Below are positions 823-4,153 of a DNA stretch of 4,153 nt, piece after piece (position 1 is the stretch's first letter; every line of letters begins with the position of its first letter). The translations under genes were made by a program, and so were the position numbers. The stretch lies in assembly GCF_003334255.1 (NCBI RefSeq), contig NZ_QOWU01000111.1; one strand, written 5' to 3'. Under the pieces are notes generated by a model. It ran no database searches. It saw nothing but the letters and a program-made list of their open reading frames with translations, and was not told where the DNA came from. The stretch comes from Escherichia coli. Lineage in GTDB: Bacteria; Pseudomonadota; Gammaproteobacteria; Enterobacterales; Enterobacteriaceae.

Positions 823-1047
823 CCGGGTATCAGTTAGCGGGAGAAATTTTTAAATACTTCACAATTCAGGCGGTTGACTGTTGTCTGGTTTGCGGGGAGT
901 TTGTTAAAAGAAACTGGCATGGTGAATCCCCCTGTGCGGAGGGGCAATCAGCGAGTAGGTATATGGGATAATCGCGGATTCAGGTGCTGGTACTGAATTC
1001 ACCGGGAGGCACCCGGCACCATGCAATGGCACATAGCGCCACTCTCC

Positions 1048-1083
1048 AGCCCCTCTCCGGAGGGGCTGTTTATATTGATTTTG
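1048..1083 (+). terminator. Rho-independent terminator candidate, plus-strand orientation
   Basis: Perfect 8-bp GC-rich stem AGCCCCTC (1048-1055) / GAGGGGCT (1060-1067) with 4-nt loop TCCG, followed by GTTTATATTGATTTTG. On the minus strand the same hairpin is followed by GGAGAGTGG (no U tract), so it looks unidirectional. Confidence 0.5.
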
Positions 1084-1102: not shown

Positions 1103-1438
1103 TTATGGACTTTGTTGTTTTAGCCCATAAGGACATATTTGCAGAGTGCAACGGTTATTAAAGCATTCATTCAATACGTTATCTGTATTTGTAGGGCATT
1201 CCTGGCTGTTTTTGATTAAATTCCAGAATGTTTTATTGAATGGTACTACGTTGTAAATGGTTACAGGCAGCACTTTGTTATTGAGCATGATGCCTGTGTG
1301 AGTCAGTGTAAATATACTTTCAGGAGGTAAGAAAGCATCCGATTGATACCAGATTATTAATTTTATTTTACTCCATATGACTGAAAAAGATATTCCGCAT
1401 GATGGCTGGATAACTGTATCAATCACAATCCACTTCAT
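1103..1438 (-). CDS. hypothetical protein, 111 aa, AT-rich moron-like gene convergent with the late operon
   Basis: Only long ORF in a roughly 30-35% GC block (hand count of subsegments) where the plus strand is littered with stops in all frames. SD AAGGA about 6-7 nt upstream of the ATG at 1438 (minus-strand reading AAGGAAACTAA-ATG). Cys-containing C-terminal segment ([26 protein letters not shown]). No family recognised. Confidence 0.4.
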
Positions 1439-2194: not shown

Positions 2195-2410
2195 ATGTAC
2201 CAGATGGAAAAAATCACAACAGGTGTGTCATACACCACGTCAGCGGTGGGAACGGGCTACTGGTTCCTGCAGTTGCTGGACAGGGTTTCCCCGTCTCAGT
2301 GGGCGGCAATAGGCGTGCTGGGGAGTCTGCTGTTTGGGCTGCTGACATATCTGACTAACCTGTATTTCAAAATCAAAGAGGACCGGCGTAAGGCGGCGCG
2401 GGGAGAGTAA
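2195..2410 (+). CDS. S: class II holin (phage 21 S21-like pinholin), 71 aa, probable dual start Met1/Met4
   Basis: Protein [71 protein letters not shown] is near-identical in the C-terminal two thirds to phage 21 S as I recall it. Two TMDs (a Gly/Ala/Ser/Thr-rich TMD1 and a hydrophobic TMD2) with a charged C-tail. SD GGAGA before ATG2195, second in-frame ATG at 2204. The ORF-track entry 2090..2410 is the same frame, but its extension runs through the terminator hairpin. Confidence 0.9.
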
Positions 2411-2414
2411 AGTG

Positions 2415-3305
2415 ATGAATAAAAAATATGAACTGGTTGTTAAGGGGATAAATAATTACGGGGATAAGGTTACTGTTACTGTGAAGCCGGAAGGTGACGG
2501 GCAAGCGTCGCTGTTGTTGCCAGATGTGGCGATTAGTCTTGACCGTACTGAAGGTGCCACGCTGGAGTTTTACGAAGCTGAGGCGAAAAAGCAGGCGAAG
2601 CAGTTTTTCATGGATGTTGCTGCCGGGTTATGTGAAGGGGATGGTCCGTTGCCGGAAAAGCGCCCCGTAATTTTAGAGGCGCAGGATGTGTTGATAACCT
2701 ACAAAGGAAAGCTACCGGGAAGAATTACTTGTTCTCTGAAGATGCCGCCGTCAACACTGCGGTCAGAAAAAGATGATGTTGAATCACGTATTGAAAAACT
2801 GGAGAGCTACGTCGTTGAGCTGAATAAGAAATGGTCGATATTGGTGCCTTCTGGCGATGAAAAGCAGTTTGCTGCGTTTGACGATTATTGTCGGAAAGTG
2901 ATGAGCAGAAATCTCGCAGAGTGTTTCAGTATTCATAATGATAATTTCAGTGACCCGGAATGGGAGTGTAACCGGCCATCCTTTGTTGTATCCGGTGATG
3001 CTGGGAAAATAACCATCTCAGAAAATGGGAAAGTAACACCTCCATCGCACCAGCACAGTGAGGAGCTCATTGAATTTGCCATTGATTACCTGAAGAACAA
3101 TAAAAAGCAGGGGCTGATGAAGCGCGTTGGCCGTTGCATGGGATATCTGCAGGTAGCTGCTGAGATTGAAGCGCTGGCCAGTGGTGCTGATAAGGATGCA
3201 ATTGTGCGGGAGGCTCTTCTTCGTGATTTTAATACTCCACCCTTTAAAAAAGTGCCGGCTTACTGGCTTCATCCGGGGCTGACTTATCTTAAAGTGCGTA
3301 TTTAG
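2415..3305 (+). CDS. hypothetical protein, 296 aa, inserted between holin and endolysin (function unknown)
   Basis: Long clean ORF with ATG at 2415 (GTG at 2412 also in frame). SD GGGAGAG at 2401-2407 sits 7 nt upstream and overlaps the last codons of S, whose TAA stop (2408-2410) lies between SD and start, i.e. translational coupling. No signal peptide or TM segment and no catalytic motif recognisable by eye. Stop TAG 3303-3305. Confidence 0.7.
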   Translation: MNKKYELVVKGINNYGDKVTVTVKPEGDGQASLLLPDVAISLDRTEGATLEFYEAEAKKQAKQFFMDVAAGLCEGDGPLPEKRPVILEAQDVLITYKGKLPGRITCSLKMPPSTLRSEKDDVESRIEKLESYVVELNKKWSILVPSGDEKQFAAFDDYCRKVMSRNLAECFSIHNDNFSDPEWECNRPSFVVSGDAGKITISENGKVTPPSHQHSEELIEFAIDYLKNNKKQGLMKRVGRCMGYLQVAAEIEALASGADKDAIVREALLRDFNTPPFKKVPAYWLHPGLTYLKVRI

Positions 3306-3341
3306 TGGGCCAGGGACAGCGGCTGAATATTTAATATATCC

Positions 3342-3875
3342 ATGAACACCAAAATCAAATACGGCCTGTCGGCTGCCGTTCTGGCGCTGATTGCCGCTGG
3401 TGCGCCTGCGCCTGACATTCTCGACCAGTTTCTGGATGAAAAGGAAGGCAAGCACACCACAGCATACCGTGATGGTGCGGGTATCTGGACCATCTGCCGA
3501 GGTGCCATCATGGTGGATGGTAAGCCTGTGATTCCTGGCATGAAGCTGTCGAAGGAAAAATGCGACTGGGTTAACACTATCGAACGGGATAAGGCGCTGG
3601 CGTGGGTGGAGAAAAACATCAGAGTGCCACTGACCGAACCCCAGAAAGCGGGGATCGCGTCATTCTGTCCGTACAACATTGGTCCCGGTAAGTGTTTCCC
3701 GTCGACGTTTTACAGACGAATTAATGCTGGTGATCGAAAAGGTGCCTGCGAAGCGATTCGCTGGTGGATTAAGGACGGTGGCAGAGACTGCCGTATTCGT
3801 TCAAACAACTGTTACGGTCAAGTATCCCGTCGTGACCAGGAGAGCGCGCTGGCGTGCTGGGGTATCGACAGATAA
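3342..3875 (+). CDS. R: SAR endolysin (phage 21 R21-type lysozyme, T4-lysozyme fold), 177 aa
   Basis: N-terminal weakly hydrophobic Gly/Ala-rich signal-anchor-release segment (GLSAAVLALIAAGAPAP). Catalytic triad spacing E35-x8-D44-x5-T50 (EGKHTTAYRDGAGIWT) seen directly. Overall very close to lambdoid/Stx-phage R proteins as I recall them. No strong SD upstream (36-nt gap after the previous stop). Confidence 0.92.
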   Translation: MNTKIKYGLSAAVLALIAAGAPAPDILDQFLDEKEGKHTTAYRDGAGIWTICRGAIMVDGKPVIPGMKLSKEKCDWVNTIERDKALAWVEKNIRVPLTEPQKAGIASFCPYNIGPGKCFPSTFYRRINAGDRKGACEAIRWWIKDGGRDCRIRSNNCYGQVSRRDQESALACWGIDR

Positions 3876-3965
3876 GCAGAATATTTTGCTGAAAAATGAG
3901 GAATGGCCACGCGGGCGGATAACACGAAATCCTGCGAACTGGCGAAACGTAAGTGAATAAAAGTA

Positions 3966-4008
3966 AAAACCCCGTTTGTTGGCACCAAGCGAGGTTTTGT
4001 GTTTCTGA
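3966..4008 (+). terminator. weak candidate stem-loop/terminator downstream of R
   Basis: AAAACCCCG (3966-3974) can pair with CGAGGTTTT (3990-3998) with one mismatch around a 15-nt loop, followed by GTGTTTCTG. The stem is A/U-rich at its base and the loop is long, so this is marginal. Confidence 0.2.
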
Positions 4009-4031
4009 CCTTGAGTAAGGCAAGGGAGAAC

Positions 4032-4153
4032 ATGGCGAAGTATAAACGAATTCTGTTGAGGTTGACTATGAAAAATGGCCTTGAACTGAAAGCGCCTGTA
4101 ACTGATGACATCAGCAGAGCACTGGCTTTTGCCATTAAGTGGGTGGCGGTCGG
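4032..4153 (+). CDS. hypothetical protein, 5' partial (runs off window end); occupies the slot between R and the expected spanin genes
   Basis: ATG4032 preceded by purine-rich SD AGGGAGA (4023-4029). Frame open to the window end (MAKYKRILLRLTMKNGLELKAPVTDDISRALAFAIKWVAV...). N-terminus is not TM-like, so not an Rz i-spanin. In Stx-type prophages an antirepressor-like gene sits between R and Rz (recollection), which may be what this is. Confidence 0.45.
   Translation, partial: MAKYKRILLRLTMKNGLELKAPVTDDISRALAFAIKWVAV

Follow-up and report, generated by a model that had tools for sequence, protein, structure and literature searches.

This locus raises the question of what a lambdoid prophage carries between its endolysin gene R and its spanin genes. 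The stretch of DNA analysed here (the window, 4153 bp) belongs to the late region of such a prophage in Escherichia coli, and a preliminary description had noted that no spanin gene stands directly behind R and that an open reading frame (ORF) beginning at ATG4032 runs off the end. We find that this frame is a complete gene of 60 codons, termed ORF60, that a second small gene, ORF43, follows it, and that the spanin genes Rz and Rz1 are located behind the two. From position 76 to its end the window is 100% identical to the chromosome of E. coli G1/2 (and 99.5% identical to many others), and the corresponding G1/2 region, locus L002, was used to extend it; a window coordinate equals the L002 coordinate minus 5925. 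Positions below are window coordinates or window equivalents unless another locus is named (aa, amino acids; nt, nucleotides).

3342-3875, plus strand: endolysin gene R, encoding a 177-aa lysozyme with an N-terminal Ala/Gly-rich segment of the signal-arrest-release (SAR) type, MNTKIKYGLSAAVLALIAAGAPAP.
3876-4031, plus strand: R-ORF60 spacer of 156 bp, its first ~95 nt common to Shiga toxin (Stx) phages that carry ant.
3966-3998, plus strand: GC-rich terminator-type hairpin AAAACCCCGTTTGTTGGCACCAAGCGAGGTTTT with the arms AAAACCCCG and CGAGGTTTT, from a terminator scan.
3999-4033, plus strand: second small hairpin, predicted, pairing the T-tract region with the Shine-Dalgarno (SD) sequence and start of ORF60.
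4032-4153 in the window (40 codons and 2 bases of codon 41), ending at 4214, plus strand: ORF60, 60 codons.
4229-4360, plus strand: ORF43, 43 aa, MSDKLITLAKILCVIVGISFSLMLVALFLSMDWMMLSSSGLLG, matching phrog_4906, a PHROG of unknown function.
4372-4830, plus strand: Rz, 152 aa, matching phrog_13 'Rz-like spanin' (E 1.2e-72).
4583-4768, plus strand, embedded in Rz in the +1 frame: Rz1, matching phrog_3198 (E 1.3e-29).

In L002 the distance from the R stop codon to the start of Rz is 496 bp, which places Rz 340 bp after ATG4032 and 219 bp past the window end. The downstream extension that had been proposed as a check recovered both Rz and the Rz1 embedded in it; the Rz1 product has a signal, the lipobox LVVSAC and a proline-rich composition. 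Behind the spanin genes L002 continues with a TonB-family lipoprotein gene and then the terminase genes. The spanins are intact, displaced rather than missing, and the cassette S, R, Rz, Rz1 is complete. R itself matches the phrog_7 endolysin family (E 1.3e-59) and is annotated 'lysozyme'; Stx-phage endolysins of its type have been described as SAR endolysins (PMC8136144). Judged by its sequence, the cassette is of the phage-21/Stx type, combining a pinholin with a SAR endolysin, with extra DNA splitting R from Rz.

The observations made on the extra ORF were borne out. Behind R lie 156 bp, close to the approximately 155 bp described, in which the plus strand offers no ORF start for 20 aa or more except a 21-aa GTG ORF and an in-frame upstream GTG extension of ORF60 that is not conserved in relatives. 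ATG4032 is preceded at 4022-4030 by AAGGGAGAA, the good SD sequence that had been noticed, and the N-terminus MAKYKRILLRLTMKNGLELKAP is hydrophilic and basic and not Rz-like. The full product read from L002 is MAKYKRILLRLTMKNGLELKAPVTDDISRALAFAIKWVAVGVAVSPMLYGLAKLVIALKS, listed in RefSeq as the hypothetical protein WP_001151823.1. It matches phrog_1115 over residues 1-60 (E 2.6e-42), phrog_4493 (E 4.3e-30) and phrog_3246, all three uncharacterised families, and there were no further PHROG matches. The description would have been refuted by a spanin or by a fragment lacking conserved homologues; the ORF turned out to be neither, being a complete gene of the phrog_1115 family.

The substitution pattern points to a protein-coding function. 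Between E. coli and Salmonella, ORF60 differs at 19 synonymous and 14 non-synonymous positions, and the ratio of non-synonymous to synonymous substitution rates (dN/dS) is 0.19 in its own frame as opposed to 1.2 and 5.3 in the other two plus-strand frames. Across the region none of the other frames is under purifying selection, save for a partial signal in one reverse frame (0.29, weaker than the 0.19 of ORF60). A 93-aa ORF in the +2 frame overlapping the 3' end of R and a 105/126-aa minus-strand ORF were set aside as spurious. By this measure ORF60 is a real gene under purifying selection. Diverged members with 25-57% identity keep an N-terminal Y-[KR]-[RK]-[IF], the motif MK[ND]G.E.[DE]AP and a C-terminal transmembrane domain (TMD), the hydrophobic segment ending in ..ALKS, ..RWW or ..VLK. 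M1 and M13 are each preceded by an SD-like sequence (GGGAGA and GAGG, respectively), and many database entries of the family begin at M13; yet the N-terminal extension before M13 is conserved, and the presence of two starts may be annotation noise. For ORF43 we obtained dN/dS values of 0.29-0.46 at larger distances and 0.91 in one closer pair. It encodes a small membrane protein and starts 14 nt past the ORF60 stop codon with no terminator in between.

The best hydrophobic 19-mer of ORF60 covers residues 38-56. The N side contains 8 K/R with a net charge of +5, and 2-4 residues remain beyond the TMD. AlphaFold2, run on a 23-sequence alignment, gave a single helix at residues 25-59 behind an unstructured N-terminus, with a mean pLDDT of 65. 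Since hydropathy, charge and the AlphaFold2 helix agree, the product is predicted to be a single-pass, tail-anchored, N-in mini-protein of the inner membrane with its basic N-terminal 25-35 residues in the cytoplasm.

We compared this predicted protein with the known components that could be expected at such a site. As an inner-membrane spanin, which would combine an N-terminal TMD with a periplasmic coiled coil of about 100-150 aa, it was rejected: at 60 aa with a C-terminal TMD it has no periplasmic domain and no spanin PHROG match, and no ORF for an outer-membrane spanin lipoprotein is embedded in ORF60. As a holin or antiholin it was likewise rejected, given that it matches no holin PHROG or Pfam family, has just 2-4 residues after the TMD, where holins usually have a charged cytoplasmic domain, and belongs to a cassette in which an S21-type holin is already present. 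Phage Mu releasin, gp25 (DUF2730), is a protein of 99 aa whose TMD is N-terminal (N-out, C-in) and whose cytoplasmic domain is acidic, and it acted on a 933W-type SAR endolysin (PMC9239132). It resembles ORF60 in its small size, in crossing the inner membrane once with hardly any periplasmic portion, and in having its gene only a few genes away from one for a SAR endolysin; the Mu protein assists lysis without being a holin, endolysin or spanin. ORF60 differs in its length of 60 aa, its C-terminal TMD of opposite topology, its basic cytoplasmic part and the presence of a holin in the phage, and with no DUF2730 or other Pfam match it was not accepted as a releasin. Lcc6 of the Shewanella phage LambdaSo, with 65 aa and a single TMD, is required for lysis by a pinholin/SAR-endolysin/spanin system, its proposed point of action being the pinholin step (bioRxiv 10.1101/2024.01.23.576932). 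It demonstrates that such systems can need extra small membrane factors. Lcc6 is likened to ORF60 by description, and no relation in sequence is expected. Its TMD is N-terminal, its gene is far from the lysis genes and, while Lcc6 is required, ORF60 is clearly dispensable in many relatives.

The preliminary description had also compared the arrangement to that of Stx phages, in which an antirepressor-like gene separates R from Rz. The layout is indeed the same. In Stx phages such as P27 and 933W-like phages the order is S - R - ant - (small ORF) - Rz/Rz1 with the same slot and flanks as in the window, R is about 90% identical to the window R, the first ~95 nt of the spacer are alike, and a terminator-type hairpin precedes the cargo, although with a different sequence (GGCACCGTAATGGTGCC). 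The mention of an antirepressor-like gene proved correct as well: P27 carries a 189-aa 'antirepressor protein Ant' between R and Rz (phrog_524, E 1.5e-112), and Ant phams have been counted in 126 of 279 Stx phages (PMC8136144). The window ORF is neither this gene nor a relative of it. There is no similarity between the 189-aa Ant protein and ORF60, which occupies its place behind the hairpin; homology between the window and Stx phages spans R and the spacer and stops about at the start codon (query position 731 of window 3300-4153). ORF60 was rejected as a member of the Ant family (phrog_524 / COG3561), whose proteins have about 190-320 aa, as its matches are confined to the three uncharacterised PHROGs and include no Pfam family. 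On this comparison, Ant and ORF60 are alternative occupants of one position and not relatives, and the arrangement is the Stx-phage layout of R, extra gene and Rz with a different extra gene. What goes beyond the earlier account is that the slot holds two small genes, that the spacer ends in a conserved hairpin, and that ORF43 has a homologue in Stx1 and Stx2 phages (65-81% aa identity), directly before Rz and after ant (for example L005 2480-2632). This homologue is unannotated in most Stx-phage records; compared with the window copy its dN/dS is 0.29-0.46.

To what extent the R-Rz interval varies was assessed in 80 viral contigs anchored on Rz and six annotated phage or genome loci, 86 in all, a sample biased to Rz proteins 83-100% identical to the query. 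R could be located in 83 of the 86 and abuts Rz in none of these; the gap ranges from 311 to 1911 bp and holds at least eight different arrangements:

Gap of 311 bp: one other tail-anchored mini-ORF ('modC', phrog_6632).
Gap of ~348 bp: a diverged ORF60-family member with the end ..IRWW.
Gap of 500-505 bp: ORF60 and ORF43, the window's type and the commonest.
Gap of 655 bp: four mini-ORFs including truncated ORF60 pieces.
Gap of ~1006 bp: Ant and an ORF43 homologue.
Gap of ~1210 bp: a 231-aa Ant-like gene, a mini-ORF and ORF43.
Gap of 1437 bp: ORF60, ORF43 and a DNA methyltransferase.
Gap of ~1910 bp: Ant, ORF43, a mini-ORF and a DNA methyltransferase.

Judging from these loci, the R-Rz interval is a hypervariable cargo slot and a recombination hot spot. 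The DNA methyltransferases (255-327 aa) stand directly before Rz (L083 1560-2495, L062 1707-2474, L102 1675-2608) and from their position would be expressed late together with the lysis genes. Truncated copies occur in the slot of L006, namely a 38-aa ORF60 core and a 28-aa piece.

A second type of tail-anchored mini-protein (modC/modD, phrog_6632) is encoded alongside ORF60-family members, before or after them. Its N-terminus reads DF[SK][KP]L[IV].., and behind a TMD it ends in ..IRWW or ..AIKG; examples are found at L006 612-1175, L095 547-827 and L096 325-737 and in protein P0262. A common origin of the two types was considered and dismissed, hhalign finding just a shared C-terminal tail at 39% probability. 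This tail corresponds to the recombination joint before Rz or ORF43, and the tails ..IRWW* (before Rz) and ..ALKS* (before ORF43) fall on mosaic joints and extend over the SD sequence of the next gene. Some database 'proteins' of 80-90 aa (P0092, P0093, P0098 and P0114) consist of the ORF43 N-terminus joined to the ORF60 core by a frameshifted linker, one such joined 'protein' belonging to a different prophage in G1/2. These fusions look like artefacts of gene calling or like frameshifts in an array of the L006 type, in which ORF43 is followed by a truncated ORF60.

The spacer hairpin is preceded by an A-rich tract and followed by a T tract at 3995-4004. With its GC-rich stem-loop, U tract and compensatory changes it has the features of an intrinsic terminator, which is what we predict it to be. 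Most relatives have a perfect stem (..CGGGGTTTT) with a predicted folding free energy (dG) of about -20 to -22 kcal/mol. The window copy has a mismatch of C3972 and A3992 through a G-to-A change (GAGG instead of GGGG), as do about a dozen loci, e.g. L008, L010-L012, L017, L019, L020 and L029; for the mismatch copies dG is about -11 to -12 kcal/mol. Among relatives, values range from -18 to -29 kcal/mol compared with -11 for the window. All 14 diverged loci of the family have such a hairpin, located 20-60 nt ahead of the gene's start codon, outside lysis cassettes too; in the tail-fibre contexts the operon has a terminator of its own, and the hairpin follows as a second one.

Conservation of the fold was examined in an alignment of 14 sequences. 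Across the nine outer pairs, 97.6% of cells are paired; at pair 19-41 the sole unpaired cell is the window's own mismatch. Double-sided changes occur at 3 pairs and in 10 cells, not one of 500 column shuffles reached the observed covariation, and the pairing is lost when the partner columns are shifted. Compensatory variants were seen in the outer stem (CCCCG/CGGGG, GCCCG/CGGGC, AGCCCC/GGGGCT) as well as in the inner stem (TTTG/CAAG, ACTG/CAGT, GTG/CAC). Both strands fold about equally well, and an attempt to assign the hairpin to one strand from G-U pairs and U tracts had a mixed outcome that leaves both strands plausible. Because the hairpin is found at every diverged family locus, including sites away from lysis genes, hairpin and mini-gene, by this comparison, move together as a cassette. 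This picture rests on 14 diverged loci; in the harvest of such loci the family alignment was too variable for a pattern search, a search with P0242 gave no viral-contig matches, and two loci from the P0247 search were set aside as false positives.

Further structure is predicted around the start codon. The small second hairpin, weaker than the first, is predicted to fold alike in the window and in L004, with whole-spacer z-scores of -1.1 and -3.3, respectively. In L061 (2310-2345), L088 (2475-2505) and L102 (1475-1505) the family gene has a GTG start that is overlapped by an 8-codon upstream ORF, MGREVLPL* (..CTGTGAGG..), and a short stem covers the GGGAGG SD sequence, which suggests translational coupling or control. 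A known small RNA (sRNA) in the spacer was ruled out: at E<=1 Rfam had no match there, its matches in the window being limited to STnc100 and a tRNA elsewhere, and in papers on prophage sRNAs the sites given for AsxR/AgvB and the Pas sRNAs are ahead of the holin gene or behind stx, and not behind R.

The ORF60 family is, on the searches made, narrow and confined to enterobacterial prophages. Among 5.8 billion protein clusters we found 121 relatives (90%-identity clusters), each of them a 'hypothetical' protein of Escherichia or Salmonella, and a profile search of 1.84 billion 50%-identity representatives returned only 32 clusters. Of 5426 complete E. coli genomes, 990 contain at least 80% of the stretch formed by spacer, ORF60 and ORF43, and 2121 contain part of it; seven plaque-forming PhiR12/PhiR5 phages carry the full ORF60. 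All of the positions listed below are inside a late operon or at its end. Four of the settings, independent of one another, have the gene directly after an endolysin; they comprise three types of endolysin and differ in their holins. The positions were as follows:

Window and Salmonella locus L088: after a 933W-type SAR lysozyme.
L102: after an R21-type lysozyme, followed by a methyltransferase and then Rz/Rz1.
L100: after a phrog_181-type endolysin, followed by two small lipoproteins.
L103 (metagenomic phage): after the major head protein, near a phrog_920 holin.
L090, L091, L094, L097 and L098: after tail fibre, tail-fibre assembly or DUF4376 genes at prophage ends.
L101: after the major tail protein.
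L092: two tandem family paralogues after a SASA esterase.

In L103 (1423-2403) a 48-nt hairpin element is present in three copies (77-94% identical), each before a small membrane ORF; two of the three ORFs are diverged ORF60-family members, and the phrog_920 holin lies between them. The whole forms a tandem array of three units of hairpin and mini-ORF.

The explanation we favour, with confidence slightly better than even, is that ORF60, the first of two small membrane-protein genes in the slot, is expressed late under the gate of the hairpin and contributes an accessory membrane factor likely tuning lysis. A crude promoter scan found no sigma-70 promoter-like site on the plus strand between R and ORF60. 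With no recognisable promoter between hairpin and start codon, ORF60 is presumably transcribed together with S, R and Rz from the late promoter. Antitermination by Q-modified RNA polymerase is established in lambdoid phages, and the idea of a gate rests on that behaviour: on the late transcript the Q-modified polymerase would ignore the hairpin and read into ORF60, while unmodified polymerase would stop there and keep a potentially harmful membrane protein silent in the lysogen. Late in infection the ORF60 protein would insert into the inner membrane as a dispensable accessory factor and could tune the pinholin/SAR-endolysin/spanin pathway, for example the timing of lysis. An accessory role in this pathway is the likeliest single function, one that we put forward tentatively and at somewhat less than an even chance; it is suggested by the repeated adjacency to different endolysin types and by the precedents of Mu releasin and Lcc6. 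A mechanism like that of releasin in particular is disfavoured by the reversed topology and by the basic charge of the cytoplasmic part.

Several observations weigh against this explanation. About half of the diverged members are located away from lysis genes, at tail fibre/assembly, major tail protein or SASA esterase sites. The slot also carries cargo not concerned with lysis (Ant, DNA methyltransferases), and position alone is therefore weak evidence for a role in lysis. ORF60 is dispensable, as close relatives carry other mini-ORFs or ant instead, and to our knowledge lambda and phage 21 manage without it. Searches of NCBIfam, Pfam, PADLOC and PDB sequences gave no match for ORF60, PHROG and phage-record annotation held no clue to function beyond 'hypothetical', and the supplementary data of the Sakai RIBOseq small-gene paper contain no match to the peptide. 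The terminator gate rests on a predicted structure and the crude promoter scan, the mismatch halves the predicted stability of the window hairpin (about -11 compared with about -21 kcal/mol), and antitermination may not be applicable in prophages with P2/Mu-like tail modules.

Lambdoid late operons are known to carry morons, extra genes between the late genes that are patchy among close phages and often encode membrane proteins; they were reportedly described by Juhala et al. 2000. ORF60 might be cargo of this kind, unrelated to lysis, which for instance blocks the entry of superinfecting-phage DNA or alters a host membrane protein, in a slot that merely tolerates insertions. Family members do occur at classical moron sites (tail fibre/assembly at prophage ends, after the major tail protein), the ant and methyltransferase genes are non-lysis cargo of the same slot, and ORF60 is patchily present among near-identical phages, with at least eight alternative slot contents among loci whose Rz is 83-100% identical. 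HK97 gp15, reportedly a moron-encoded inner-membrane exclusion protein inside the late operon, would be a precedent. A classical moron, however, has its own promoter upstream and a terminator downstream, whereas ORF60 has no detectable promoter and a terminator-type hairpin upstream, and as a classical moron in that strict sense it was rejected. The stretch from hairpin to start contains no sigma-70 promoter-like site in the window or in two tail-fibre contexts and the terminator is directly upstream, so that expression in the lysogen, which exclusion needs, is not evident. PADLOC recognised nothing in ORF60, and the gene adjoins endolysins more often than chance would suggest. We consider such non-lysis cargo possible but rather unlikely. 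Quite improbable, in our estimate, is that the two small genes are non-functional filler, recombination remnants hitch-hiking at a mosaic junction: the slot is highly mosaic, with truncated copies in L006 and frameshift fusions in the databases, but purifying selection acts in the ORF60 frame only (dN/dS 0.19), the motifs are kept down to about 25% identity across genera and contexts, and ORF43 has values of 0.29-0.46 at larger distances, albeit 0.91 in the closer pair. We give this the least credence of all.

Type I toxin-antitoxin loci such as hok/sok, symE/symR and ldr/rdl combine a small hydrophobic protein with a structured leader and an occluded SD sequence. By analogy ORF60 could be a membrane toxin controlled by a minus-strand antisense RNA of ~65 nt, which would run from codons 1-13 to the hairpin, acting as a bidirectional terminator, and cover the ribosome-binding site. 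The product is small and hydrophobic, the gene lies in prophages and occurs in tandem cassettes, and its SD sequence is predicted to be sequestered. In every case the hairpin stands 20-60 nt ahead of the gene; it folds equally well on the minus strand, where a long U-rich tail follows it, and the 8-codon upstream ORF of L061, L088 and L102 is reminiscent of mok/hok. Minus-strand promoter-like sites (TATACT/TATAAT with TAGTCA/TGGTCA) recur at the same place, inside codons 3-13, in three contexts. These sites are no better than those of synonymously recoded controls (per-locus p 0.06-0.7, combined 0.17), for which reason an antisense promoter inside ORF60 was rejected as a finding and is retained only within this low-probability alternative. 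The hairpin variants of L004, L075 and L097 rely on G-U pairs that exist only on the plus strand, no toxin promoter is visible, and unlike type I loci the cassette has no Rfam family and ORF60 no similarity to Hok or another Pfam toxin. We regard a toxin-antitoxin system as improbable, although less so than mere filler.

Returning to late-expressed cargo that tunes lysis, a wider claim may be attached to the hairpin. Hairpin and mini-ORF might constitute a previously undescribed mobile late-operon cassette of enterobacterial prophages, present once or as a tandem array behind genes for endolysin, capsid, tail tube and tail fibre, in which the hairpin gates or regulates, possibly via antisense RNA, a tail-anchored protein that is a new accessory lysis regulator or a membrane toxin for pinholin/SAR-endolysin phages. 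In this full form we think the claim doubtful. No prior description of the cassette and of its spread over late-operon positions was found, and we treat it as a lead, not an established system.

The remainder of the window contains further features of the lambdoid late region:

115-191: tRNA-Arg, the single one found by ARAGORN and the second of the two in G1/2.
888-1077, plus strand: STnc100-family sRNA, full-length Rfam match (132 bits, E 4.5e-30).
1103-1438, minus strand: iraM.
Between iraM and the holin in window order: a DUF1737 ORF.
2195-2410, plus strand: holin gene S, 71 aa, phage-21-type class II (pin)holin with in-frame starts M1 and M4.
2412-3305, plus strand: a 297-aa ORF between S and R, end-to-end match to phrog_1085 (E 2e-188).

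The holin matches phrog_9876/phrog_20 (E 1.8e-40), is named 'class II holin family protein' in RefSeq and presumably resembles S21 68/71. Of the 297-aa ORF RefSeq annotates the first third alone, as an 'incomplete YdfR family' pseudogene. Elsewhere the S-R interval contains a DUF1327 gene and a DUF1823 gene (PhiR12_1), a 329-aa ORF (Stx2_95) or nothing (PhiR12_3), and the S-R junction seems to be a second cargo slot. The STnc100 site is in the slot behind Q and the tRNAs that in Stx phages is taken by stx; a 2026 preprint (10.64898/2026.05.13.724894) relates STnc100 to the prophage sRNA PasD. Positions 1-75 are a multi-copy sequence found at up to 23 places per genome and also on plasmids. In strain 205 this sequence is located just after a gene annotated 'IS4-like element IS421 family transposase'. 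At the junction, ~75/76, it takes the place of the 5' portion of the first tRNA-Arg gene (G1/2 has two), which indicates that the end of an insertion sequence truncates that tRNA in the window.

For the annotation of such prophages the apparent anomaly behind R is removed, the extra ORFs being ordinary and widespread prophage cargo. The R-Rz junction emerges as a hot spot of recombination, occupied by widely differing late-expressed cargo. The plaque-forming PhiR12/PhiR5 carriers make the function of ORF60 directly testable. If its family consists of toxins or exclusion factors, it adds to the small membrane effectors encoded by prophages; if it does tune the timing of lysis in pinholin/SAR-endolysin phages, Stx phages among them, the release of phage and toxin would be affected.

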